This document shows, piece by piece, positions 8,933 to 45,619 of a stretch of DNA of 51,410 bases. Under the pieces are notes generated by a model, which was not told the DNA's origin, searched no databases, and was given only the letters and a program-made list of their open reading frames with translations. A program made the position numbers and the translations under genes. Position 1 is the stretch's first letter; each line of letters opens with the position of its first letter. Source of the stretch: Macrostomum lignano (taxonomy: Eukaryota); NCBI GenBank assembly GCA_002269645.1, contig NIVC01004296.1, forward strand, positions 1 through 51,410. Direction: 5' to 3'.

Positions 8933-11900
8933 CTGACGTGGAAAAAACTCTAAAGAAGATTGGAGAAGGCCAGAAGGCATTTCAAGATATTTTCGACAAG
9001 TTTAATGAGTCCGTCAACCAAGCTCAGAAGGAGAAGTTTGAGAATGAGCTCAAACGCGAGATTAAAAAGTTACAACGATACCGCGAACAGATTAAGACCT
9101 GGCAGGCGTCAAATGAGATTAAGGACAAGCGAAATCTTGCCGAGGCAAGAAAGAACATCGAGAGCGTAAGTTATAGATTCAATGTACTTTTAAGTTCGCT
9201 GTGAATTGTTAGCAGAGATAATCTACAATCAATTCTCCTCAGGATATGGAACGGTTTAAGATAATCGAAAAGGAGACAAAGACCAAAGCCTACTCAAAAG
9301 AGGGGCTGGGCGCGGAGCAGAAGAAGGATCCGTTGCAAAAAGAAAAAGAGGACATCATGGACTGGGTTCGAGTGAGTGTTCAAAGTTGCTTTTCAATAAC
9401 GTTCCTTTGTCTATGCGCAGGTTTTTTAATTAATGTGTATATTCTTTGCAACAGGAGAACATCAGTACCCTTGAAAAGCAAATTGAAAAGCTGGAATACG
9501 ACATCGAGCTGTTGATTGCGAATAGCAAAAAGAAGAAGTTAGATCGCGATGTAAGTTAATAATAGAATTTAGCATCAAATTTTCCTTTATTTCTGTACTT
9601 GTCCTTCAGTTTCATTGCTTAAAAAATCTCTTTTAGAAGCAAGACGAAATGGACTCAAAGAAAGACATTATTGGCAAGCATCGGTTCCACATTCACCGCC
9701 TCGAAGCCATCATGCGAATGCTGGACAATGACAACTTGGAGCTTGAGAAGGTACAAAACGTTTTTTTAAGAGTTCGATTTTTGACCAAAATTCCCGATTT
9801 CGGGCCTTGGGGACAGGGAAGCTCGGCGGTCGGGGTTTGTCTTGCAATGTCACACTTATGAGGACCAATCCACAATGCGCAGGGAGTGAACATGCTTGAC
9901 GATTAGAAAGTCAGGGCAGCTGTACACCCTGTGTGAGTGTGAGTGCCTGCGTACACTATTGGCGCTTGCATGTGCTCAGTAGTCAGCGGAGCGGGCAGGA
10001 TTGTCTCAGGCGCTGGTTGTGGGCCGATGGCAAGTCATCACCTTGTTTTATTAACTTTCCCAGGTGAAAGACATTAAAGACGACGTTGAGTATTACGTCA
10101 ACCAAAATGAGGAAGCCGATTTCTGGGAGAACTACAACGAAAATATCTACGACGAACTGGAGTTGGAAGATATTGGCGGTAGGTTGTTAATACTGTCCTT
10201 ACTCGCTGACACAAATTTTCAGTAAATTTCTGAAGATCATCATCTATTTTCTGTCATTCTCACGACCTTCGTAACACAGCGCTGCCGCTTTTATGACTCA
10301 ATATCACAAATTTCTTAACACAATCTCACGGCTTTCACTGATACAATCTCACGGCTTTCACTGATACAATCTCACGACTCACTGACACAATCTCACGGCT
10401 TTCACTGACACAATCTCACGGCTTTCACTGACACAATCTCACGGCTTTCACTGACACAATCTCACGGCTTTCACTTGACAATCTCACGGCTTTCACTGAC
10501 AATCTCACGGCTTTCACTGACACAATCTCACGGCTTTCATTGACAATCTCACGGCTTTCACTGACACAATCTCACGGCTTTCACTGACACAATCTCACGG
10601 CTTTCACTGACACAATCTCACGGCTTTCATTGACAATCTCACGGCTTTCACTGACAATCTCACGGCTTTCACTGACACAATCTCACGGCTTTCACTGACA
10701 CAATCTCACGGCTTTCACTGATACAATCTCACGACTCACTGACACAATCTCACGGCTTTCACTGACACAATCTCACGGCTTTCACTGACACAATCTCACG
10801 GCTTTCACTGACACAATCTCACGGCTTTCACTGACAATCTCACGGCTTTCACTGACACAATCTCACGGCTTTCACACAATCTCACGGCTTTCACTGACAC
10901 AATCTCACGGCTTTCACTGACACAATCTCACGGCTTTCACTGACAATCTCACGGCTTTCACTGACACAATCTCACGGCTTTCATTGACACAATCTCACGG
11001 CTTTCACTGACACAATCTCACGGCTTTCACTGACACAATCTCATGACTCACTGACACAATCTCACGACTCACTGACACAATCTCACGGCTTTCACTGACA
11101 CAATCTCACGGCTTTCACTGACACAATCTCACGACTCACTGACACAATCTCACGACTTTCACTGACACAATCTCACAAGCCTTCCTGACGCTGGTATCCA
11201 ACAACACCCTCCTACATCCGCAGCAATCCTCGCAACTTCGCCGCACGACTCCGTTGACGAGACCACTCTGTCAGCCTCCATGGCAGCCGCAGCCGCCGCC
11301 GCCGCCTCTGCGACCCCAACGACAACGTCGGCAACCAACGACAGTCAGCCTGCTGCTGCTCCACCGGCCGCATCAACCAGATCTGCATCCAGTGCATCCG
11401 CCGCCGCCACCACCGCTGCGACCGCTTATTCGGAGTCGACTCAGCCGCAGTCGCCGTCAACTCCGGCTTCGCAGTCCGCGCACCCGCAGCCTCCGCCGCC
11501 GTTGATTCTGCCTTCTCAGCATCAGCACAACCAGCAGCAGCAGCCGCTGATGTCCACCGCCGTTGCGAATCAGGCCGTTTCTTCTGGTTCTGCCGCTGCT
11601 CAGCCTCAGGCTGTGAAGTCACAGCTTCTGCCACAGCAGCAACAACAGCAGCAACAACAGCAACAGCAGCAGCAGATGGCACAGAATGTCACTACAGGCG
11701 GCAGCAGTCAGGCTACAAACGATGGCTCGGATCGCGAAGGCTCGACCGCTTCTGTTTCTGAAGTGGCGTCGCCTTCGGTGCTGTCTGGCGGGCAGCTGAA
11801 ATCGCAGGACCTGTTCTCTAATTTGGGTGAGTCATTGTGGCGCCTCTGTTTTGTCAGCTTCAAGGTTATCCATCAAGGATGTGGTTTATCTACATCCTCC

Positions 11901-12456
11901 CAATGTTCAGGTGGAGGTTATCCACATCCTCCCAATGTTCAGGTAGGGGTTATCCACATCCTCCCAATGTTCAGTTGGGGTTATCCGCATCCAATGTTCA
12001 GGTGGGGTTATCCACATCCTCCCAATGTTCAGTTGGGGTTATCCGCATCCAATGTTCAGGTGGGGTTATTCACATCCTCCCAATGTTCAGTTGGGGTTAT
12101 CCGCATCCAATGTTCAGGTGGGGTTATCCACATCCTCCCAAAGTTCAGGTGGGGGTTATCCACATCCTCCCAATGTTCAGGTGGAGGTTATCCACATCCT
12201 CCCAATGTTCAGGTGGAGGGTATCCGCATCCTTTCAGTCTTGAGGGGTGGTTATCTACATTCTTACCAGTCTTTGGAGAAAAGTTATCCACATCCTCCCA
12301 ACGCTCATTAATCCCATAATCCCCATAAATCCCTGCAGGCGGCAGCGCCAATTCGCAGTCCAGCAGTCAGGGGGGCGGCAGCGTCGGTGGCGGCGGTCTG
12401 CAATCGCTGCTCAGACTGAGCCAGGCGGGCCTGACGCCGCAGCACCAGTTGCTTCT

Positions 12457-12489
<33 letters not shown>

Positions 12490-18401: not shown

Positions 18402-21400
18402 ATGTTCCTCCTACTGAACAACGGCAAACGCGAGCAGCAGCAGCAGCAGCAGACGCCGGAGCCAACTCAGTTCGGTCGTCAGGCGTTTCAATTTGACGTG
18501 GACGACAATTTCGACGCATCCTGGGACACGCCCTCGTCACCGATGCGTCGGCAACAGCAGCAGCAGCGGCGGCAGCAGCAGCAGCAGCAGCAACCAAAGT
18601 ACTATCCGGAGAATCATCCAATTCATCCAGAAGATGAACGACTCAACGTGAAATGGCCTGCAAAACGGGAGACTCGGGCTCAGCAACAGCAGCAGCAGCA
18701 GCAGCCGTCCAAAAGTAGCGGAGTGCAAGCTGGTGTTGGATCAGCTGATTCAGATGGATCTTTTGAGCATAGGTTTGTGGCTGTGACGACGTCGTAGGTT
18801 GGGAGTGAGGTGTATGCGAGAGTGAGGTGGGTGCAGGAGTGAGGTGGGTGCAGAGAGTGAGGTGGGTGCAGAGAGTGAGGTGGGTGTGGAAGTGAGGTGG
18901 GTGCCGGGAGTGAGGTGGGTGCCGGGAGTGAGGTGGGTGCCGGGAGTGGGCTGGCATGGGTGCCGGGAGTGAGCTGGGTGTTGCGGGAATGAGGTGAGTG
19001 TTGCGGGAGTGAGGTGGGTGCCGGTGATGTGTTCCTTATTACCCGACTTTCGATAATCAAGGAACAATCACTTCTAGCTCAGCAGCTAGGCAACCCAGTA
19101 AGTCAACAGAAGGTATTCAATTACCTTGAGTCCTTTGGAGATCTCTCGGAGTAGTTCTCGATTGTTTTCAGTTGCTCTCGTATAGTCACTTCTGACTTTC
19201 GTTTGTAGATCAGGTCCGATTCTTCTTTCTTCTTCAAATAGTTCCGGCCGGATTCTGTCGCTCGGACCAATGGGAAGCTTCCGAATTAACAATGGGATCC
19301 CTGCGCCAAACTGCGGTCTAAATTAAGCCTCCTTCTTCTAGCAGTGCCTCTATGCACTCTAGGTATAGCTCCGGAAACCACTGATAGTCCTCTAAGATCT
19401 ATCAGGGGCAGTCCTTCTGGAGACTGCAACCAATGGAGTCTAAACAGACTCAAGAGTCTCAACAGACTCAAATAGACTCAAGTCTCAATAGACTTGAGCG
19501 AGACGTCTCTAACACAACGGCGCAAATAAGGAAGGCTTACCGCAACAACTCGACCGAGTCTCGATTGACTTGGTATATCAGGAAGTCCTCCTAAGGCTTC
19601 CTCTTCGGAGCGCTCCTCTTCCGTGGGGAGAATGGCTCCGGTACCGCTTCAGATCGCTTGTATTTATAGGCAAGTTTTTGATCCAAAATAGCATCATTAC
19701 AATTCTCGTGTTGCGCTAAAAGGGGAAAATGGCTCATGGCGTATTATTCTGGTAACATCTTTTTCTGTTAGCTTGATTCATTCAAAGCTTAGGCGCACAT
19801 GCGTGTACTTACTTACTTATAGTAGCATTATACGATTATCTTCTTTTTTCTGTTTTTGCGGGAGGCAGAACACTCTACAAAATCTCCCTTTTTTACGAAA
19901 AACTCGTCCCGAGTTTTAACAATGAAATAATAAAATTTTGTGGTGATCAGTTAATATAGGAAATAAACAATTGATTTTGTGCGCGTCTAGAGAAGCGAGG
20001 GTTTGGTCAAAACTCTAAAAACTTTTCAGTACATATTGCGGTCAAAACTCGAATATCGCGTAGACATCGAGTGGCGTCAGGTTTGATACGACACCACTTT
20101 CGAAACGTGCAGTCTCGCGGCATACTATTACATAAGGGGCATCCTATAATGCCCCTACTAGCGGTTTGCTTCAAACAGTGCATGCAAATAAAATGTTGGT
20201 GGTTACAATATTGAAACGTACGCCAAGAATAACAATAGGCGCATTGTCGCAAACTATCTCTACTGACGTGACAATTCTGCCAGGGCTGAATATAGTGTGA
20301 ATTACTTAAACATTGTCCGCAAACTTTATGTCCATTGATGCAAATAGTCGGTGGCTTGACAGCCAAGTCATCAGCTAAACATATCGGGCAGTCATATAGC
20401 TGCTGAGGCTGGGGCGCCTGTTTCGACAGTGCGTTACCCATAATTGTCGTCAATTTGTCGCTGTCTTTGTGTCGCTCGGATTAGTCGCCTTTTACGACAA
20501 GCTTGCGAAGCTGTAGTGCTATTCTTTATCCCGGTCACTACACGGGGTTGTTCTCGAAACTTTAGCGTGGTCGTAGGTTGTAGCCATGTGGCTGGCTCAC
20601 ATCTGTCGTTTGAGTCTCCTTGTGCTTCGTCGCGATGTGGCGGTTCGTTGAACGCGTGCGATCCGCGTTGTCCAGTGACGGCAGAAATGTTGCCGTGTCC
20701 GTGTTAATCTTTTTTAGTCGATGGATGTGCACGTAGAACTGATGTTGGTGAGGATCTTGCACATTAGCCAAACGCGCCGTTGTCGGTGAAGTTAGTTGGA
20801 CCACTCGATACGGTCCTTTGTACTTCTGCGCGTGTTTATGCGTCTGCTGTGGCGGGTAGTGTAGGTAAACGATGTCGCCGGCCGTCAGGGTTGTCGATCT
20901 CGCGTCGTTGCCGGTGGTCAGAGCCACCTGGTTGTCAATGTTGTGCTTAGCGATCTTCCATGCGAGGTGTAGTTGCGTGACGAATTTCTGAATGGAAGTC
21001 GGTATCTCCACGTACTGCGATGGTAGCAATTGCTGTGCGAGCAGATTCGGCGGTTGGAAGTCTCGTCCAAACATTAGGAAGAATGGCGTATTGTCTGTTG
21101 ATCGATGAATAGCGCTGTTGTAGGCCATTGTTACAGATTGCAGGTAGATGATCCAGTCTTCCGGCTGTTGGTGCGCGAAATGTGTAATCATCTCGTGCAG
21201 GTTGCGGTGAAACCGTTCAACCATGTTTGCCTTCGGATTGTAGGTCGATGTGTAGATCTGCGTAATGTTGAGAATCTTTACGACTTGCTGAAACAGTTGA
21301 GACGTAAACTGCGATCCGTTGTCCGAGGTGAGGTTCTTCGGCGTGCCGTACTTGCAAATGATTTCGTTGAAGAAACTCATTGCCACTGTCTGAGCTGTGA

Positions 21401-24400: not shown

Positions 24401-27400
24401 AGAAGATGAATCCTTGATAGAGACTGCCTCTTCCATTGAGCAGCTCCCAGAAGCTGTTTGTCCAAAATGATTTGATGGCGCTGTCCATTGAAACAAGGAC
24501 GGGAAATCTTCCTGTCCCGGTTCCTTTGTCCTTTCTTGTGAACAGCTGGTGAATCATCTTGCGTTGGGTGATGAACGCTTGCAAGAAGTCGTTGATCGTC
24601 CATCCTGGTGTTATCTCGTCAAGTTGGATATCGGCGAATGGCGTATACTTCGTTCTGTTGAATCGTATCTTCAGATCGTCCATATCGTACGTTTCATCGA
24701 CAATCACCTCTGGTTCTGTGATGTTCGCTGTCGTTCCTGTCGTTTTAATGACATGTAGTGCATCGTCCAGTTGATAGTAGTTTGCTGCAGTGGTGCAAGG
24801 TCTTGGTATTGCGGTGCCAACGATGATGTTGTGTACCGTGTCCAAGAATCCTTGTATTCTTTTGCCTTCGTAGAATGCTTCAATTCTCGGCTTGTCGTAG
24901 CAAGTTGTTGACGTGTTTGACGGCAAGATGTTGAAGTGCTGTATCGGCGTGCACTTGTATATCAACAGATGCTCGTATATTGGAACTGCCAAAACGTTCG
25001 TCATTCCGGTGATTTTACGAAAAGTCATCGTAGGGTTGACATAGTAGTTTTGTCTGGCATAATTTAAGTTGATTGCGTGCATTTTGCAAGTTAGCTGTAC
25101 CAGTGTTCGATGCAAGTGGTTTAACTGGTTGTGTAGATTGTGATCCAAAGCCGTTATCTTTGCTGACAGTAGTCGGTTTGACACCAGTTTGGGACGTTCG
25201 ATGTCACGTCGTCGTCTGTTCTGTTGTTCCTGCTGTTGATACGTTCCGTTGATGATCGCCAGAAAGGTTTGTTTGTCGTCATCTTTTACGTAGACTGGTA
25301 TCTCTTGTTCCGAGATGAATAGTGTCTTGTCTGTATCCTTGCATTTCAGTTTTTGCTCGACTGGTTTCTTTTGAAACGTCAGTGCCAAGTCTCCTGACTT
25401 TGCCAAAAACGTATTTGACAGTAGACCTCCTTCAACTGTGTGATACTTTTGAAGCTTGCAATCAATTTCCGGCTCAACTTCCCACGCGAAGAAGTATTGT
25501 CGTGACTTAGATGGTTCTTCATATCGTGAGTCGCCTCTGCGTATGATTTGCCATCGATAGTCTTGATGATATGTTGGACTCAACGGTAAGCTGTATAGTT
25601 CCTCATTCCGCAGTATCGGCGTTGGACACCATCCTTTGCTGTATCGGCAGTCGCTTAATTGCAGTTGTAGCGACTCCATTTTTTCAAAAGGATTGTGGTA
25701 GAATGGAATATTCCTGATTAGGTAACTGTTTCGTGTCATGTAGTTAGTCCATGCTTCCGAAAAGTGTACATATCGTCCGTTTGCTGAGTTCTTCGTTCGG
25801 TAAAGTTGTGCCTCCCCCACTTTCTCATCCGGTTCTAGCTGACCATCCTTTGAGAACAGTGTTTGGTTCCATTGTAGACATTCAGCGTGCGACACATGTA
25901 GTTCATGTTGTTTAAATCGGATCCGGTTCCATTGTCCGCGCCAAACTTTCTCCACCAGGTGCTTGTCTCTGAAGCACACTATTCCGTGTTGTCGATGCTT
26001 CTTGATGTTAGCCTTGTAGAGATCGAGTGTAATCTTTTTTGGTTTCGTCTGGTTTGTCTTGAAGTAGCTGCATTTGATGTCGGTTGGTATCTTGTAGATC
26101 ATCGGTTGGATATGCGCATCCGTTGGACAAATCATTGGCTTTTCCGTTGCCGTTGCTTTGGCGACTACTGCTATCAGTAGTATCACGATGATCCAGAGCA
26201 GCCAGTTTTTCCACTTCTTGGACCTTGCCTTTGTCTTTGCTGGCATTGGCTGCGATTGCCATTCGTTATCCTCCATGTCCGCATCGTATTCTTTCGGTTG
26301 TTCCATTGGCTGATTCAGGCGGAAGGCTTCTGATTTGCTTTGCTCTTTGGTTATTTCAGTATCTTCGTCTGCGGCTTCCTCCGATGTTTCCGTTGTTTCA
26401 CTCCATTGCGTTTGGTATCTTTTCTCTGTCTTGTAGTCGACCGTTTGAATATAGGCTTCACCATTTCGTTTGTATCGGATCTCGTAGCATTCGTCGCTGT
26501 CGGAACTCGGCTTTTCTTTCATCTGTTCTTTTTCCATTTCTTCATCTTTCCATTGTATTTCGTAGCCTTGATCGCTGTCGGAACTTAGATTTTCCGCTCT
26601 CAGTTCTTCCTGCATTCCTTCTTCGGCTCGGTATCCGTTCGTGTCATCATGCACTTCGCAGTCGTGATCGTTGCCGTAACTTATACATTCTTCTTCTTCC
26701 TTCATTTCTTTGTCTTTCGTGCTCGTTTTGTCGTCATCCACTGTTGTCGATTCATAGTTGTTCTCTTCGTCGGTCTTCCTCTTTTCTTCGTTGCCGGTGT
26801 CGCTCTCCGCCTCCTCCCTTTTTTTGTGATTTACTTTCTTCCTGTTTTCTCTGCTGTCTCCGGTGGTCTCTTTTAATTTGATCATTTCGGTTTCATTCGC
26901 CTCTTCTGTCTTGTCAGTGTTGTCCTCGTGCGTTGTCTTCTTTTCGATCAAGCTGATGTCAAGTTCCGGGACTGTGAAGTCCATTTCCAAGTCGTCAATT
27001 GTGAACACTTGCTGTTCCTGCTGCTCATTTTCCGGTGTGTACGTGATGGCATTCGCGTATCGTGGCATTGCTTGCGTCGGCTGTCTTTGTGTGTACCTGG
27101 CGTTGCGTGGCCTGTAGCCATTATTTCTGAAGCGGCCTTCGTTTCCGAAGCGGCCATCATTTCCGGAGCGGTCATTATTTCCGAAGCGTCTATCATTTCC
27201 GAAGCGTCTTATGCTTTGTTGTTGGCGATTTTGATATTGCTGCCATGATTTCTGCGGCTTCTGATTGTTGAAAATCTGTCGCGGCTTGTCGTATCTTGTT
27301 GACCAATGAGGACAATTAATCTGATAATGTCCTTCTTGTCCGCAGTAGTAACATCTGGCTGAGGCTTGTTCATTTCGTCTTTTTTGTTCGGCGATAGCAG

Positions 27401-30400
27401 CTGTCTGGTGCTGCATTAACTTGTTTAATTGCTGCGTCAGTTTCTGCACTTCATTGTTGCCTGTCGTCATTAATGGGGCACTGGCTTCCCATTGCATTCC
27501 GCACCGCAAAAGGTCTTCTTCGGTTTCGATATTTTCACGCAAAAGTCTATCCCGAAGTGACGGCTGTGCGTTGTTTATTACGTGCAGGATGAGGTTTTGT
27601 TCACGATCCATCAATCGTTGTCTTTCTCTGGCGGCCAATTCTGCCGCTCCCAGTGGCGGTTGGTCCGCAGCTTGCAGCGGTGGCTGATGCAGTGCCTTAA
27701 TTATCTGGCGGATATCGTCCACAAAGGCGAGGAAGGATTCTGTTGCTTGCATCCTTCTGTTATGTAACTTGTGCAGCAGCACTGATCTGTTTGTGCCGCA
27801 ACGGTTGAAATGCGCGCGCAGTTGAATGATTAGTGCTGGATAATTTTGCTGTGTTGCCGCATCCAGCTTGCCGTAAATTTCTCGCGCAGTACCTTGGAGA
27901 AGAGGTGGCAGCAGCTGTGCCTTCTCTGGATTTTGTAGGTTGTATTCCCTACATACCAGGTCAAAATGGTCGACAAATGTGTTAAAATCTTTCTCCATCG
28001 AGAAGGTACCGACCGTTTCTTTGATGTCTCTGTGTACCGTTGGATTGCGCCGCGCCATGTTGTTGATAGGATAGAACGGTAGTTCAAGATCTGGATCGAT
28101 TTGTAACGGATCGTCCAGTGTGGTGTTTGCCTCGGAATAAACCTCGACTGTAACGAATTGCCTTGTGGTGTCGATTTGTTATTCGCTGGCCTCGAATGCG
28201 GTGTGGCTTGCTGCCACTGGTTGTCCTCAAATGAACTTGTTCTGTTCGCTTGCTGATTTCGCACTTATGCGGCGTCCCGCAAAGTGTATCTTCAAGTTGA
28301 AGTGGACTTTGTCTTCTTGCTTTGCAAAGGCTTTTTTCTCTTCTTTGACTTTCCTTCTTTTGTCAATTAACTCCGCTCTCTACGAAGTTTCAATTAATTT
28401 CGGTTTTGTTTTAGTTTTTGTGCCGGCAAAATGTTTCAGTTATTTTTTGTTTGTTTTGCGTCGACGATTCTTTTATTTTCGGTTTGTTTTCAGTGTACCG
28501 ACGAAGTTAATTTCGGTTTTATTTTAACTCACACTTGCTCGAGCTCGTTAAAACAAAAATTAACACGCGTGCTCAAACTGTACTCAAAATTGACAGGTGC
28601 TCAAACCTGTACACCAAAATTTACTCGAGTTTCAAAACGTACGGACTTGAAAAGTGTTAACTCTAACACGTGCGCGCAAAATTAATGAAGTCGCTCTTTC
28701 GTCACTGTACAATAGCTTGGCCAGGCTATTGCTCAAAGTTTGAGTAGTGCCGAGAGGGCGAGATCACCAATTGATGTGTTCCTTATTACCCGACTTTCGA
28801 TAATCAAGGAACAATCACTTCTAGCTCAGCAGCTAGGCAACCCAGTAAGTCAACAGAAGGTATTCAATTACCTTGAGTCCTTTGGAGATCTCTCGGAGTA
28901 GTTCTCGATTGTTTTCAGTTGCTCTCGTATAGTCACTTCTGACTTTCGTTTGTAGATCAGGTCCGATTCTTCTTTCTTCTTCAAATAGTTCCGGCCGGAT
29001 TCTGTCGCTCGGACCAATGGGAAGCTTCCGAATTAACAATGGGATCCCTGCGCCAAACTGCGGTCTAAATTAAGCCTCCTTCTTCTAGCAGTGCCTCTAT
29101 GCACTCTAGGTATAGCTCCGGAAACCACTGATAGTCCTCTAAGATCTATCAGGGGCAGTCCTTCTGGAGACTGCAACCAATGGAGTCTAAACAGACTCAA
29201 GAGTCTCAACAGACTCAAATAGACTCAAGTCTCAATAGACTTGAGCGAGACGTCTCTAACACAACGGCGCAAATAAGGAAGGCTTACCGCAACAACTCGA
29301 CCGAGTCTCGATTGACTTGGTATATCAGGAAGTCCTCCTAAGGCTTCCTCTTCGGAGCGCTCCTCTTCCGTGGGGAGAATGGCTCCGGTACCGCTTCAGA
29401 TCGCTTGTATTTATAGGCAAGTTTTTGATCCAAAATAGCATCATTACAATTCTCGTGTTGCGCTAAAAGGGGAAAATGGCTCATGGCGTATTATTCTGGT
29501 AACATCTTTTTCTGTTAGCTTGATTCATTCATAGCTTAGGCGCACATGCGTGTACTTACTTACTTATAGTAGCATTATACGATTATCTTCTTTTTTCTGT
29601 TTTTGCGGGAGGCAGAACACTCTACACCGGGAGTGAGGTGGGTGCCGGGAGTGGGCTGGCATGGGTGCCGGGAGTGAGCTGGGTGTTGCGGGAATGAGGT
29701 GAGTGTTGCGGGAGTGAGGTGGGTGCCGGGAGTGAGGTGGGTGCCGGGAGTGAGGTGGGTGCCGGGAGTGGGGTGGGTGCCGGGAGTGAGGTGGGTGCCG
29801 GGAGTGAGGTGGGTGCCGGGAGTGGGGTGGGTGCCGGGAGTGAGGTGGGTGCCGGGAGTGGGGTGGGTGCCGGGAGTGGGGTGGGTGCCGGGAGTGAGGT
29901 GGGTGCCGGGAGTGGGGTGGGTGCCGGGAGTGAGGTGGGTGCAGGGAGTGAGGTGGGTGCCGGGAGTGAGGAGGATGTGGAAGTGAGGTGGGGTGTGGAA
30001 GTGAGGTGGGTGTGGAAGTAAGGTGGGTGCCGGGAGTGAGGTGGGTGCCGGGAGTGAGGTGGGTGCCGGGAGTGAGGTGGGTGCCGGGAGTGAGGTGGGT
30101 GCCGGGAGTGGGGTGGGTGCCAGGAGTGAGGTGGGTGCCGGGAGTGAGGTGGGTGCCGGGAGTGGGGTGGGTGCCGGGAGTGAGGTGGGTGCCAGGAGTG
30201 AGGTGGGTGCCGGGAGTGAGGTGGTTGCCGGGAGTGAGGAGGATGTGGAAGTGAGGTAGGGTGTGGAAGTGAGGTGGGTGTGGAAGTGAGGTGGGTGTGG
30301 AAGTGAGGTGGGTGTGGAAGTGAGGTGGGTGTGGAAGTGAGGTGGGTGTGGAAGTGAGGTGGGTGTGGAAGTGAGGTGGGTGTGGAAGTGAGGTGGGTGC

Positions 30401-33400
30401 CGGGAGTGAGGTGGGTGCCGGGAGTGAGGTTTGTTCCGACAAAAGTTGACCTCAGTAAAAATTTCGAACAATCCGCAGACTTGGCGGCAGAGCCCAGACG
30501 CCACTGAGTTATCATTCGTCGCCAATGTCGCAGCAATTCATGCCGTCGCCAATGCAGCCGCAGCTGCTGCCGCCTCCGCCGCCATTGCCGCAGCAGACCC
30601 TGCCTTTGCAGAAGCAGCAGCAGCAGCAGCAGCCAATGTCGCTGCTGGCTCGACCAGGTGCTGGACCGCCGCCTCATCAATTTCAGTATCAGCAGCAGCA
30701 GCCACCACAACAACAGCAGCAGCAGCAGCCGCTGGCAGACCAACACCTGCACAGACTGTTCGAAGAGATTTACGCGCTCCGCGGCGAAGCAGAGACGGTG
30801 CAGTTCAAGTACCGTCAGGAGCGCGACGCCTGGGCCTACGAGAATGCCGTGCTGCAGGCGAGACTGGCGGACCTGGCTCAGCGGGCGGAGCGGCAGGCGG
30901 GAGTCGAGGCGGCCTACAGTGAGGAGCTTGAGACTCTGCGAGCGGAGAACCGGGACCTGCGAATCCAGATGCAGGAGGAGCGGCTGGCCAGGGAGCTGGA
31001 AGCTGGCGATGATGCTGCGGCGAAAAGCGGAACTGCAGCTGCCGCTGGCGATCAGGCAACTCAACAGCAGGTGGATCAGCTGGTGAATGAGCTGGCAGCT
31101 TTGAAGGTAAAAAACTGCTGCTGACTTGGCTGCGGGTGGTGCTCGAGTGGGTTGGGTGATGCTGGAGTGAGGGGGTGTTGCCGGAGTGAGGTGGGTGTTG
31201 CCGGAGTGAGGTGGGTGTTGCCGGAGTGAGGTGGGTGTTGCCGGAGTGAGGTGGGTGTTGCCGGAGTGAGGTGGGTGTTGCCGGAGTGAGGTGGGTGTTG
31301 CCGGAGTGAGGTGGGTGTTGCCGGAGTGAGGTGGGTGTTGCCGGAGTGAGGTGGGTGTTGCCGGAGTGAGGTGGGTGTTGCCGGAGTGAGGTGGGTGTTG
31401 CCGGAGTGAGGTGGGTGTTGCCGGAGTGAGGTTTTTGACACATGTTTCATCGCAGCTAATGAAATCAATGTCATCATCCCAGCGTGATCTGGAGCGGCTG
31501 CAACACCGCTACCGCACCGAGCGCGACCGTTGGTCGGCCCGACGCCGCGAGCTGGAGAAGGCCATCGACGATCTCATTGCTGGCAAAGATCCGAAAGCGG
31601 TGCAGAAGCGATTGAAAGCGGCGGAAGCGGCCGAGCCGAAAGCTGAGGAGCTGCACCGAAGCGGCTTCGATCCGGTGGCCGACGATGATGACTTGGCCAC
31701 GGCCACCATGGCCTACTATTCCAGCGCCAACACCGTCAAAAAGGAGAAGGCCGTGCTGGAACTCGAGTTAGAAGACGAGAAAAGAAAGAATCGAGTACTA
31801 GAAATTGAGGCGAGTGAGCTCTAATGATGTACCGCGGAGCAAATCATGGACGCACTCATTAAGTCATAAACTCATGAACTCACTCATGAACTCCCTCATG
31901 AACTATTAACTCATGAACTCACTCATGAACTCATTTATGACTTCACTCATAACCTCACTCATAAACTCACTCATAAACTCACTCATGAACTCACTAATGA
32001 ACTCACTCATGAACTCACTCATAAATTTACTTATAAACTCACTCATTAACTCACTCATAAACTCACTCATAAATTTACTTATAAACTCACTCATTAACTC
32101 ACTCATAAACTCACTCATGAACTCACTAATGAACTCACTCATGAACTCACTCATGAACTCAATCATGAACTCGCTCATGAACTCACTGATGAATTTACTT
32201 ATAAACTCACTCATGAACTCACTCATGAACTCACTCATAAACTCAATCATGAACTCGCTCATTACTTCACTCATAACCTCACTCATGAACTCACTCATAA
32301 ACTCACTCATAAATTTACTTATAAACTCACTCATGAACTCACTCATGAACTCACTCATGAACTCAATCATGAACTCGCTCATGAACTCACTGATGAATTT
32401 ACTTATAAACTCACTCATGAACTCACTCATAAACTCACTCATGAACTCACTCATGACCTCACCCTCTACCAAGGTGGAGGTACTTCGGGACCAGGTGATG
32501 CGAGCAAACAAAAAAGCTCGCGGCGAAGCTGCCGATGACGGCGAAGCCGAAGGAGCCGCTGGTAGCCGGGATGCCGATTTACCGTTGGAGAAGGGCTCCG
32601 TTGAGGCGTCCGAGAAGCGTCGGGACTCGCGAAGACCTTCTGAGACACCGGTTGGGTCACTAGTTGATTATTGTGTCTGGTTTTCCAGATCCCATCCATC
32701 CGATCCCCAAATCCCATTCACCCGATTCCCAAATAAAAGATTCACAAAATCCGAAACTCCAAATCTCGATCCCAAATCTCAAGTACAAAATCACAGATCC
32801 CAAATAAAAAATCTTAAACCCTAAATACCGAATCCTAAATTCTACACTCCAAACCCCAGATTCCTAATCCCAAATCCCAAATCCCAAATCTCATATTCCA
32901 AATCTCATATTCCAAATCCCAGATCCCAGATCTCAAGCCCAAAATCCCAAATCGAAAATCCCAGATCCTAGATCCCAAGCCCTAAATCCCAAATCCCGAA
33001 TCGAAAATCCCAGATCCCAGATCCTAAGCCCTAAATCCCAAATCCCAAATCGAAAATCCCAGATCCCAGATCCCAGATCCCAAATCCCAAATCGAAAATC
33101 CCAGATCCCAGATCCCAGATCCCAGATCCCAAGCCCTAAATCCCAAATCCCAAATCTAAAATCCCAGATCCTAAACCCCAAATCCCAAATCCCAGATCTC
33201 GAATCCCAAATCCAAATCCCAACCTGATTTCAGCGCAAACACGAGCGCCAGGACCCTTACTCAAGCACCCCGGACGAGCAGCAGCAAGAGGATCAGCCGA
33301 AGCAAAAGCAGAAGCAGGCAGCTGTGCAACAGAAGCTGAATGAAGCGCACGAAGAGCTCAAGGCGGCCGCTGAGGAGCGGGATCAGGCTCGAGCCGAAGG

Positions 33401-38289: not shown

Positions 38290-41138
38290 GCTCACTGTCC
38301 ACTCAGCTTCAGTATTTTTCTATCGTGCACTTTATCCGGTGAAGGAGCGCTCTTTGCTCCTCGTTGAACATAACCATTGAAGAAACAGTTGGTGAGGCGC
38401 ACGCAGCATCCCAGAACATCTGCTTCAGGGAAGTAAAACTCGACAACGGCAGCAAACAATTTGCGCACTCGCAAAGCACATAACGGTGATCGCAGCGAAA
38501 TGAAGCATCCGAAACAAAGGCAAGCAAAATTGAACAGCCACTTTGGCGGGTGCTTCAACTTTCCCCGGGAAATCATTTCAGTGAATTCACCGAGTGCGGT
38601 GTTTAAATTTTCGGCAGGATCATCACCGGCAATTTTCTCCTTAAACGTTATGTAGCCTGAAATGTTATTATTATGCCTCAGTTGTCCTTCGCCTCAGCAA
38701 TCGTTATTTCCATCCAAGTTCAAGTACGAGCTAACACAAATGCATGCCTTACCTGCAATATCATAAACAGATGCCTTTTCGGCCATTGATAGGCTCTCAG
38801 CTTTGACGTAGCAGTCATCGAGCGTCGAAAGTTCTTCGTCTGAAAGGGGCGTGTCGCAGCAAAGTCCTTTGTTGTGCACGAATCCATCCAGCTCTAACAC
38901 TGTGTAGAGTTTCATTCGTCGGAGTCGAGCGCTGAGAAGAACTTGCTCTACTGAGATAAAGTAATTGCCTCCGCTCATTTGGCGATAAACACCAAATTCT
39001 GCTTCCAGAGGATCACTGTGCAACTCCGCTATGAGAATGTACGTTGCACCAGATTCGCAGAGCAGTCGTTCGCATAGTTCTATGATTGCATGAATAGTGT
39101 AAGCTAATGACCTCTTCGTCTCTGACGTCAGAGATTGGTGTCTTGTTCTTCCCTTTCCACTGCGCATCTCCTCAATCGATTCGCAAAGCGCGCGCAGGAA
39201 CTTGATGTTTGGATCTTGAACTGAATAGACAGCCCGTCTGTCTGGGTCATTAAGTCTAACATGAAGATGCGGGTTCTTGCAGTTCACAATTTTCCAGAAT
39301 TTTGAAATAACGTCAATGAATGCAGCTGTTCCATTCTTCCCGTCGCATTTTAGGGTGGCAGCAACATTGTCGCAGAAAACTTGAAGAGCTAAATTGACTT
39401 TAGTCTTTTGGACATTCGTTGGGAAACACGCTTCGTATGTAATGCCTGTACGCTTAACAATGTGATTTGCTTCAGATTTATACAGTTCTACAATGTGTGA
39501 CCACTTAGCCGTGACGACTGTTGTAGACTTGGGCAAACGAATGGTTAGCATTCCATCAGACTCAGACTGCCAATTGTTCCGAATTGACTTCAGAAGGTGT
39601 ACAACCAGTGGCGTAGGGAGGGGGGGATCAGGGGGGATGTATCCCCCCCGAAGAGCCTGACCAAAACTTTTTTGTTGCACTTTTTCGCTATACATGCTAC
39701 CATGTGAGCACTTTTACCTTGGTGTATCCCCCCGTAGGAAATTCACCTTGGTGTATCCCCCCGTAGGAAATTCCTGGCTACGCCCCTGTGTACAACATCA
39801 TGGAGCAAAAAGAAAGTAGACTCCTGTGATTCAGATTTGCCGATCCAAGGTTTTGTCTGTTGAGCAGCAAACATCGAGAAGCACTTTCTGTTTGTGGGAT
39901 GGTTGTCACACACAAGCGCTACATGTTGATTGACGAGTTGAATGCACTTTCGAAGCTGATGGTACAAAAAGTCGGCGGAAAGAAGAAAAATCGATATCAG
40001 CCTTGACAAATGCGACCTTTACGATCTCGTGTGCATCATTTTCAGTGCCAATCTCTCCTAGACCAGCCAACTGAGTGCGTAATGTGCGTTGGCAAAGGAA
40101 GGAGCGTCTGTGCATGCGCGTATGCAGAACTGCTAATCAGGTAAAGCAAAGCAGATTGGCGCATAGTGGCAATGTCGTATCGTCGATTGTTTGGGTGCGT
40201 TGTGGCGAACTCGAGTAGCTTCAGGATGAATGTAACTGATGTGTCCGGTACAACTCCATCGTGGTTAAAGGCAATAGAAAGGTTCTTAGATAATGCCCTC
40301 ACCTCACTTTCGACGTCCACTGTAGAGTTTTTACAACGATTTATGATAGCTTCAAGTTGCGACCAATACTTTAATGTTGGTTGACATCCAAGCAGATCTC
40401 GAACCGCAACTGGTGAGTGTAACCGAAAGCATCGCACGGAATAGTTTGGTGAAACGAAAACCCGCAGAACCATTTCGGCATTGGCGCTTAACGAGAAGAT
40501 AAACACCTCCTCTTGAACAATGGTAACAATAAGCTGATGTGCTTTGATGACGTCTGAACAGTGAATGGATGCTCGGAATTCAGTCCACGATGGCAGCGTG
40601 TCCCGCTCTCGAAATTCTACTAGTTCATCTTGGAAAAGGCATCGTTCGGACAGCAGCACGCCCCTTTCCTCAGCCTGTCGACTGGCACGCACTGCAATAT
40701 CCAAGCACGCTTCTTAGTGTTTCGTTTCGACCCTATTTGATGGAGTGCAAATATTTGAGCAGTAGAACTTCACAAACCTTGTGTTTGAACGAGGCAGGAC
40801 TGCGGGACTCCGTCGAAAACTGATGGTGGATGTAGCGGCCTTTCATTTCTTCCCTTTTTTATCATTGGTGCATCTTGAGGCCAGTGCTTAGCACACACGC
40901 CCATGTAGTCTGTCACGGTCTAAACAACAACAAAATTGCTAATGAATTAATGTGGCCAGGCTAAATCTGATTCACAAAGCACATTTGAAGAAAGTCTTAC
41001 CGTCAGTTGATTAGGCAGAGACAGTCGCCAAGCCTCTCGTTCAGTTGCATCTTTAGGAAACAAAAATACTGCAACATTCCGATCACGGTTACTATTGTAG
41101 TTTGCACAACAGAAAATGACGCTGCATTTTCTCGGCAT
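38290..41138 (-). pseudogene. THAP-domain P-element transposase, intron-containing, disrupted
   Basis: MPRKCSVIFCC...FLFP...W, intron 40920-41000, VCAKHW...PSVF; DVVH/LLKSIRNNW motif split by a MITE; DPLEAEFGVYRQMSGGNY; at least one frameshift near 40710. The 3' limit is approximate. Confidence 0.85.
39606..39788. mobile_element. hAT-like MITE inserted in the P transposase
   Basis: Ends CAGTGGCGTAG / CTACGCCCCTG; 8-bp TSD TGTACAAC at 39598-39605 and 39789-39796. Confidence 0.9.
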
Positions 41139-43250: not shown

Positions 43251-44252
43251 ATCCCGCCCTCCGCAGGGCCCTGCTTCTACTCAACCTCAAGGACATCAGG
43301 ACGGTAACCATGGCCCTCTCGGATCATGGCTGTTTTGCCAGGCATCGCTACCTAATTGAGCATTGAGAATTCTGGCTCTCCTGCGTTGAGAATGCGGAAT
43401 GTCTTGCCTTTACTCAGGAGAGTCACCTACCTCGGCCCAAAACCGGACCTTCCGACGTTTTTAAGCCCGAGAATCTCTGCCAGCTCGTCCGCAACCAAAG
43501 GGCTACCAGGCGAACGACCATCCACATCCTGGACTCTCCGGAGGGGGCAGTCAGAGCGCCGCGCGGGCACCGGCACCACCGGATCTCCGTCCCTGCGTAA
43601 CACCGCAGCACTAGCCTCGACGCCTTCCCGCTGTATCCGGAACCCCCTGCAGCTGAGTCAAGTACATGTAAGTCTCTTGACGTGCGTAAGAAGTCTCGCG
43701 TACTCGAGTAGTCGAGTTTAAGCTGTTCATAGTCGTTAAATTGGTAAGCTGTTGTACGTAACATGCACGAAAAATTGTAGCTTGGTAACTTTGTGTAAAG
43801 CAATCGAAATGCATCAACTACTAACATATATTTCAACTACTCGTATTAGCAGTCTCGATAAGAAAATGTAAACCCTTTCATCAGTGTGCATTCCTCCTTT
43901 ACATAACCCACCCCACGCCACTGCCACCCCACTTCACTTTGAGAGAGGTTTATTTTGGGGGCGTCCGATACAGGGTTGATGCTCTTGCAGACTCAAACAA
44001 AGCATTTTGGCTCCATCTCCCCAGAAGCGCTAAAATAGACCAAGTCAATAGAAATGTACAGTGGCAAGCATTAGACCTACTGCTTTTGATGCAGCGCCAA
44101 TTCCTAGGGCTGCTATTTAATGGCAAGCGCGAATTTTGCTCTGAAGGGGTGCACGTACACTGAGGGATGAGATTATTAGGAGTACTAGCCTGCAAAATGA
44201 ATCGTGCATGAAAGCTGTTTGCATCTAGGTTCTGCTCTGAGAAGACAAATAT

Positions 44253-45619
44253 ATGTCTGTAAAAGACAGCTCTATGGAGCGAACAAACGTCGAGGTCAGC
44301 AAGATGAAGTCCATCTGCCGAAGACTATTTTGCATGCGCTTCTCGTCCAGTGGGCGACTGCAGTTCAACAGGATCAGTCTGTTGGCTCTGGTTGCGTATC
44401 TTCTGCTTGTGCAACTACTCTTGGCGCACCTTTGGCGAAGCACTTATAAGATACACTCCATGGAGATTCGCTTGCCGCAGGCGGCTCTGTCGAGCCAGAC
44501 GCCCGGAGCTTACTTGTGCACCGCTATCAGCCTCCGAGACCCGAGGAACGCGTCAGCAATCAGGCCAATCTACATCGTCGAGTTCGAGCCGCTGGTGCCA
44601 CCGAATCCAACAAACTCCGAGATCCATGTGCATCACATGCTACTCGCCGAATGCAACGAGCTACCAGAAGGTGTCGGCGTCAATGGGCACGGCTGGTGGA
44701 ACTGCGGTCTGGGACACCACAAAGACAGCGCCAAATCCGCGAACAGCAGCAAAGAGATGTGCTCGGTACGGCAGCGGTACCTGTTCGCCTATTCGAACAG
44801 TGCGGAAGCGTTCCGGCTACCGCGGAAGGTCGCGATGCCCGTGGGAGACTCTCGTTTCTACGGCGGAGCGCACCTGGTGCTGCAGGTACGAAGATCTACA
44901 TATTTTGTGTGTCTCATAATAAGTACAAGCAAATGTCTCGTACTGACAACTAATTATGCGTAACTGACAACCAGGTGCACTACTCTAGTGGAAACCAACG
45001 GTTGCACGTCCATCCAAATCAGCATCACTCCCCTGCAGTTGGAGACCGCAGGCCCGGTCTCCGTCTCCGCTACCTGAATGAGACGGGAAATCATTACCGA
45101 GTGGCCGGAGTCCACCTGTCTTCAACGTCGATCAGACCCGACGTCCGCTCTCGACACACCACCGGCTGTGAGTACACTGGCGAACTGCCGATAAGACCAT
45201 TTGGTCTTCGGGTGCACACTCACTCGCTGGGCAGGCTGGTCTCCGTGTACAGAGTGCGTCGGCCCCGGCTGCCCCAGGACCCGATGGTTTGGCACCTCAT
45301 CGGCCAGGCCGACCCGCGCCAACCGCAGGCCTACTATTCCGCAAATGCGAGCAGCGACCTGACAGTGAAGCCAGGCGATCTCATTGCGACAGCGTGCGCC
45401 ACTACAGGCGGCAGAGGTGGCAGGTCCGCCCCAGTTGAGACGTGCAACGCCTGGCTCATTTTCTGGTTTGAGCAGTTGGATGCATTGTCGAAAGTGACTG
45501 GGCCGGATGGCCACGAGGGCAAAGTGGATCTGCGACAAGACTGCATCAGTAGTGGCTCGGCGTTGAGCCTCTGGTCTGATGCGCCGAAATGGGTTGAGAA
45601 GCAGGCTTTTTTGGTGTAA
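44253..45619 (+). CDS. Peptidylglycine alpha-hydroxylating monooxygenase (PHM)-like copper protein, 425 aa; exons 44253-44885 and 44975-45619
   Basis: AYLC, HHM, LQ/VHY, RVHTH, GxxDPRQPQAYY and KPGD motifs; the EMCN motif reads ETCN; N-terminal hydrophobic anchor. Confidence 0.9.

Follow-up and report, generated by a model that had tools for sequence, protein, structure and literature searches.

A gB-type Env in frame between Gag and Pol in a young Ty3/gypsy element of the flatworm Macrostomum lignano

Introduction

What kind of retroelement encodes its envelope protein in frame between Gag and Pol, and how might such a polyprotein be put to use? The question is raised by contig NIVC01004296.1 of the Macrostomum lignano assembly GCA_002269645.1, analysed here over positions 1 to 51,410 (the window, 51,410 nucleotides), where a single stop-free open reading frame (ORF) of 2498 aa (20562..28058, minus strand) joins Gag, an Env glycoprotein and Pol. 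In Drosophila errantiviruses (gypsy, ZAM) and vertebrate retroviruses, env occupies an ORF of its own on the 3' side of pol, the fusogens are of class I (F-type or retroviral), and late domains reside in Gag.

We hold with good confidence that the locus is a young, intact M. lignano Ty3/gypsy element of the published GAG-ENV-POL kind with a gB-type Env, and probably a sister subfamily of the family Mlig_errantivirus_2. It has its parts in order in one frame, its Env falls in the gB fold class, it is present in many copies, and it has been kept under purifying selection. From this arrangement we infer a mechanism for the polyprotein, which is set out below in conditional terms.

A single reading frame from Gag to integrase

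The initial annotation, made from the letters and translated frames, described one ORF running from a CCHC-bearing Gag through an acidic linker and Env to protease, reverse transcriptase, RNase H and integrase. ORF, Pfam and hydropathy analyses bear this out, and the coordinates given for its signal peptide and transmembrane segment proved correct within a few residues. All features of the element described here lie on the minus strand unless otherwise stated. Gag (aa 1–255; 27294..28058) carries a CCHC zinc knuckle at aa 236–249 (Pfam zf-CCHC, 236–251), and its N-terminal region matches that of other Env-bearing polyproteins; neither Pfam nor a PDB sequence search revealed a capsid fold, the PDB matches being nucleocapsid knuckles only. 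The acidic spacer (aa 346–605; 26244..27023), 31% D+E, varies among copies (compared with P0002).

Env begins with an internal signal anchor or signal peptide (aa 620–638; 26145..26201; hydropathy 2.46), predicted to be cleaved, followed by an ectodomain (aa 640–1215; 24414..26141) with 12 cysteines, six N-glycosylation sequons and a furin-like RRRR at aa 948–951, retained as RxKR across homologues. A transmembrane anchor (aa 1216–1238; 24345..24413; hydropathy 2.43) ends the segment. Exactly two stretches of the ORF, aa 614–641 and aa 1213–1245, exceed a hydropathy of 2.0 (Kyte-Doolittle, 19 aa); a third, weak stretch (1.51) lies inside the integrase core. Pol comprises an aspartic protease (DSG at aa 1345; 23796..24065; Pfam aa 1332–1417), a reverse transcriptase core (YVDD at aa 1762; 22620..23099; RVT_1, aa 1654–1813), RNase H (22029..22427; RT_RNaseH, aa 1878–2010) and an integrase (GPY at aa 2415; 20565..21755; Integrase_H2C2, aa 2102–2160, and rve, aa 2179–2275), the order found in Ty3/gypsy elements (Metaviridae). 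The Env segment is not distinct in base composition from Gag or Pol.

The boundaries of the element, overlooked in the initial annotation together with a 144-aa ORF discussed below, carry the other marks of Ty3/gypsy. Two long terminal repeats (LTRs) of 855 bp, bounded by TG...CA, lie at 28772..29626 (5') and 19025..19879 (3'), 9747 nt apart; by self-BLAST they are 99.88% identical, with one mismatch. A tRNA primer-binding site (28758..28769) is found 2 nt past the 5' LTR, a polypurine tract at 19883..19894, and a short target-site duplication, CCGG, at 19021..19024 (plus strand) with its second copy at 29627–29630. The insertion is very recent. It splits an 18-nt G-rich minisatellite (18783–19024 and 29627–30430), within which the duplication lies; a 103-nt identity of the flanks is due to this repeat.

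The Env ectodomain resembles herpesvirus gB

The middle segment, called Env in the initial annotation, gave faint signals when searched alone: a sub-threshold Pfam match to Monjiviricetes_fusion (E 1.1e-5), the same family as top match in the Atlas (0.90, weak on the Atlas's own scale), no match in a PDB search with the single sequence, and a single-sequence AlphaFold2 (AF2) model with pLDDT 31.8. HMMER against a representative library recovered 54 relatives, 47 of which were aligned with the query (48 sequences). The profile built from this alignment matched herpesvirus gB with E 9.2e-17, and the first 47 of its 52 rows were gB entries; the AF2 model made from the alignment reached pLDDT 78.9 and pTM 0.58. 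Foldseek placed Kaposi's sarcoma-associated herpesvirus gB first among matches to this model (E 5.5e-21, TM-score 0.43), and in VIA-align the top six rows were gB (for herpes simplex virus (HSV) gB, Z 11.4 and rmsd 8.4 over 416 aligned residues), followed by rhabdovirus G at Z 6.2. On profile and modelled fold, the ectodomain is a class III fusogen of the gB type, in agreement with its being called Env in the initial annotation.

Copies, selection and homologues

With 76 of 260 candidates scored, the M. lignano genome (G000) shows no fewer than 80 matches to Env, and in 11 of the 80 listed the frame is open for at least 2400 aa. The nearest named record, a Macrostomum lignano polyprotein in UniRef, has Env fused to Pol and is 95% identical over the Env that it covers. 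Against two other copies, the dN/dS ratio of the ectodomain is 0.03 and 0.05, compared with 0.05 for the protease, 0.01 for reverse transcriptase and 0.04–0.06 for integrase; we set aside the rows for RNase H against locus L015 (0.40, where the L015 frame is broken) and for gag and ectodomain of L014 (dS saturated). By these codon comparisons, the Env ectodomain is under strong purifying selection. Along a single pair of copies dS ranges from 0.05 to 0.8, which suggests recombination among subfamilies, and mosaic copies are seen in which an Env 99% identical is joined to downstream genes only 71–77% identical; mosaics and swinging dS together point to module swapping. Clusters of element copies occur on several contigs.

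Among 30 homologues of at least 700 aa, 11 unite the knuckle, Env and the protease motif in a single chain, five of these extending through reverse transcriptase; the remainder are one BEL/Pao element with Env last and partial sequences. Reverse transcriptase identity to the single-chain homologues falls to 28%. M. lignano itself has a second such family (P0005, P0057 and P0058; Mlig009479, Mlig014599), a 2852-aa single-chain Gag-Env-Pol of the same layout whose Env is ~30% and reverse transcriptase 43% identical to those of the window. In one Env homologue, P0007, a NADAR domain precedes the signal peptide in the same chain.

Contigs from other studies (4 of 24 runs compared) also cross the junctions: those from two studies span gag, signal and ectodomain (26100–27831), and one spans ectodomain, transmembrane segment and tail (24163–25213). 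The indels listed, 12 of 34, all lie outside both ORFs. No Env-skipping joint was found in the contigs of three presumed-RNA runs, contigs being able to show presence and not absence; one 5503-nt skip occurs in contigs of a run of unknown kind.

Relation to published elements

The initial annotation left room for the gene order being new, an idea that prior documentation of the order for the lineage would overturn. Such documentation exists. In their main text, Chary & Hayashi (eLife 2026; PMC13524379; bioRxiv 10.1101/2023.10.26.564294) describe elements of Nematoda, Bryozoa and Platyhelminthes as carrying only HSV/gB-type ENV, in the order GAG-ENV-POL; the flipped env order in nematodes is credited to Sacco et al. 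2022 (J Gen Virol 103:1739; PMID 35550022), and GAG-ENV-POL elements are reported not to be monophyletic. Supplementary file 1 of the same work gives nine flatworm elements, with Platyhelminthes_Rhabditophora_Mlig_errantivirus_2 as the sole M. lignano entry: 16 copies (by a criterion of >98% nucleotide identity across ORFs) and LTRs of 863/864 nt lying 9727 nt apart. The supplement assigns this family to RT clade S and IN clade H. The order is in print for both phylum and species, and is therefore not a discovery of this analysis.

To judge from that table, the window element has host, gB-type Env, Env-before-Pol order and multicopy state in common with Mlig_errantivirus_2, and their primer-binding sites agree at 12/12 nt. 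The two differ in LTR length (863/864 against 855 nt) and spacing (9727 against 9747). The gap of 8–9 nt suggests a sister subfamily, and since 10 of the 16 loci examined in G000 carry LTRs of 863–864 nt, ~90% identical to those of the window, the window copy is best read in this way: it is probably a sister subfamily of Mlig_errantivirus_2. It also displays the features of the published gB-type GAG-ENV-POL elements, namely a gB Env, signal and transmembrane flanks (by hydropathy), env between gag and pol, intactness and multiple copies. A word search of the main text of PMC13524379, figures being outside its scope, found no discussion of single-chain topology, splicing, tail motifs or the accessory genes described below. 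'Glycoprotein' likewise did not turn up in a word search of the text and five supplements of PMC12801592, which classifies M. lignano LTR families, nor 'polyprotein' in one of PMC4604429.

Late-domain-like motifs in the Env tail

PTAP and PPxY motifs in retroviral Gag recruit TSG101 and Nedd4-family ligases. The window ORF contains one of each, PTAP at aa 1295 and PPNY seven residues further on at aa 1302, both within the cytoplasmic tail that links the transmembrane anchor to the protease (24144..24176); they are the only P[TS]AP or PPxY motifs of the ORF, and both are retained in the two genomic copies checked. Such motifs occur in seven of 32 homologue tails, at 8 per 3333 tail residues compared with 7 per 36482 residues elsewhere, in a count that omits relatives without a transmembrane segment, tails shorter than 40 aa, same-family duplicates and the BEL/Pao match. 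With the window ORF excluded, six tail motifs remain, compared with 0.9 in composition-preserving shuffles, of which 2 in 5000 reach six; the motif-bearing proteins are 18–33% identical to one another. Because the same motifs recruit TSG101 and Nedd4 ligases in Gag, budding from the Env-Pol linker is favoured, and by this analogy the tail motifs are candidate late domains.

Accessory tandem-RING genes

An ORF of 144 aa (20007..20441), placed behind pol and ahead of the 3' LTR, has two RING-like Cys/His clusters and an N-terminal MGxxxS, a myristoylation-type start. Relatives are found 2.5–6 kb downstream, mostly at ~3970 nt, on the same strand in 45 of 49 near-complete Env matches. In sister subfamilies the RING gene measures 216–222 aa, and behind it stands another, divergent copy of 199–212 aa; at loci L011 and L015 both RING genes precede the LTR. 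Both clusters, with 15 invariant Cys/His, are kept in eight aligned proteins, three of which start with MGxxxS and five of which lack MG. Pfam RING matches are mostly sub-threshold, one passing (zf-C3HC4_3, E 7e-8), and dN/dS is 0.06–0.19 in four pairs. On the domain, a ubiquitin-ligase role may be suggested for these proteins.

In the window's own subfamily the gene may be decaying or trimmed, since its ORF is shorter than the 222-aa sister form, its first RING lacks one zinc ligand, and in many of the close copies the frame stops earlier. It contains no P[TS]AP or PPxY late-domain motif within its 144 aa, and a crude scan of the 400 nt before its start found no strong splice acceptor. The cassette consists of one, two or more tandem-RING genes, whose number and length vary by subfamily (window 20007–20441, minus strand; L011 4698–6069; L015 4772–6133; L014 2925–4247; L016 3623–7154); in L016 the integrase end is duplicated, with a short RING ORF. 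Beyond the M. lignano genome no homologue was recovered at the thresholds used, a weak blank, as the searches needed shared 5-residue words. Like the arenavirus Z protein, these are small RING proteins, some with an N-terminal MG, an analogy that the Atlas also returned as a lead only (0.88); unlike Z, they have two RINGs and, in the longer forms, a helical C-terminal part. According to PMC5408684, rotifer elements often have additional ORFs on the 3' side of pol; a word search of its text did not find 'RING'.

A model for the polyprotein

Arrangement and motifs together suggest how the element might work. One polyprotein would be translated, Gag and the acidic spacer emerging in the cytosol, until the internal signal anchor directs the ectodomain into the endoplasmic reticulum (ER), where it would be glycosylated, disulfide-bonded and probably cut by furin. 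The transmembrane segment would then halt transfer, leaving tail and Pol cytosolic. Signal peptidase would cut between Env and Gag, which the anchor would still hold at the membrane, and capsid and enzymes would be set free later by the protease that the element encodes; tied to the membrane until these cuts, Gag and Pol would arrive membrane-attached at the site of budding. There the tail PTAP and PPxY would recruit ESCRT and Nedd4 ligases, and an enveloped particle would be released and fuse with another cell. The double membrane crossing, already put forward in the initial annotation, fits the hydropathy profile, the positive-inside flanks (net +5 ahead of the signal anchor and +4 behind the transmembrane segment) and the similar signal and transmembrane layout around Env in divergent homologues; it stays a prediction at that level, as do processing, stoichiometry and budding. 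That Gag and Pol, by a route that differs from retroviral assembly, are tethered to the membrane through Env's signal anchor and transmembrane segment, with late domains that have left Gag for the Env-Pol linker, and with an expandable flatworm cassette of tandem-RING genes, ubiquitin-ligase-like and in some forms perhaps myristoylated, that aids budding or counters host defence, is a tentative proposal to which we give rather less than even confidence.

Several observations weigh against the interpretation as a whole. The element is known from sequence alone. Capsids do not usually assemble from Gag, Env and Pol in equal amounts, and some unseen regulation is therefore likely. The ectodomain by itself falls under the Pfam cut-off (24 bits against 27 for Monjiviricetes_fusion), TM-scores of its model to gB are just 0.38–0.44, and 25 of the 32 homologue tails contain no P[TS]AP or PPxY motif. 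In 69 of the 80 listed Env matches the frame is shorter, with scattered lengths, through decay or assembly error. Kinship with the published M. lignano family was judged on table values, not on sequence.

The stoichiometric difficulty would vanish if the single ORF were mostly expressed as separate products, from spliced Gag-only or Gag-Pol RNAs or by early termination, with Gag in excess and the full polyprotein a minor species. Capsid stoichiometry argues for surplus Gag, which copia obtains by splicing, and the downstream RING ORF needs an RNA of its own or reinitiation, so that some processing must presumably exist. Set against this are the conservation of the signal anchor right behind Gag in divergent homologues, as in-frame translocation requires, and a frame open over both junctions in those 11 of 80 listed genomic matches; we consider expression mainly as separate products unlikely, if by no means far-fetched. 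Still less is to be said for the idea that Env is a non-functional passenger, or merely docks intracellular capsids on the ER, in an element that moves only within its cell. It would suit an element known from sequence alone, and also the statement in the discussion of PMC13524379 that how gB-carrying elements enter cells is unknown. The ectodomain, however, has dN/dS values as low as those of protease and integrase and a full class III fold in the model, its furin-like site is kept as RxKR in homologues, and late-domain-like motifs are enriched in their tails, all of which makes such a passenger improbable.

Practically no weight is due to the notion that the gene order came from misassembly, or from a viral glycoprotein gene that inserted here a single time; nothing was found in its favour. 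It is ruled out by the matching LTRs with their target duplication, the many copies of the same spacing, the fusion of Env to Pol in the separate UniRef record, the contigs of other studies that bridge the Env junctions and the other, 2852-aa family of M. lignano with its like layout.

If the membrane-tethered model holds in its two crossings, tail motifs and RING genes, it would describe a second route to an enveloped reverse-transcribing particle, and the RING genes, should they hold, would extend the range of accessory genes in LTR retrotransposons to ubiquitin-ligase-like ones. The late-domain-like motifs of the tail and the selected tandem-RING cassette may be new, as we found no publication on late domains in gypsy Env tails or on RING accessory ORFs in LTR elements, in a search that most subscription journals lay outside.

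Neighbouring genes

Elsewhere in the window are a host gene with a NOT2/NOT3/NOT5 C-terminal domain (11166–13354, plus strand; E 1e-33), host exons of a copper type II ascorbate-dependent monooxygenase (44241–45619, plus strand) and a fragment of a P-element-like transposase with a TNP-like GTP-binding domain (38694–39713, minus strand; E 3e-10).

Comparison with known systems

Like gypsy, ZAM and the vertebrate retroviruses, the element combines LTRs with the three genes gag, pol and env. Unlike in insect errantiviruses and Retroviridae, its Env is of class III, internal and in frame, and the ORF 3' of pol encodes a RING protein. BEL/Pao elements (Anakin, Tas) have a related gB/chuvirus-like glycoprotein, and one Env match, P0045, is a Pao element; there Env follows the integrase and a Pao peptidase A17 is present, neither of which is seen in the window element. 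As an analogy only, the flavivirus C-prM-E-NS chain similarly strings together capsid, signal anchor, luminal glycoprotein, transmembrane segment and cytosolic enzymes, with a different fusogen class and replication mode and no homology implied.

The NERVs (non-canonical nematode endogenous retroviruses), said to be a clade restricted to nematodes, reportedly have a continuous gag-env-pro-pol ORF and extra ORFs for a small hypothetical protein or a helicase; the window element has the continuous ORF in a flatworm host. In NERVs, as cited in PMC13524379, env likewise stands ahead of pol. The window element works like a NERV and is not classed as one.

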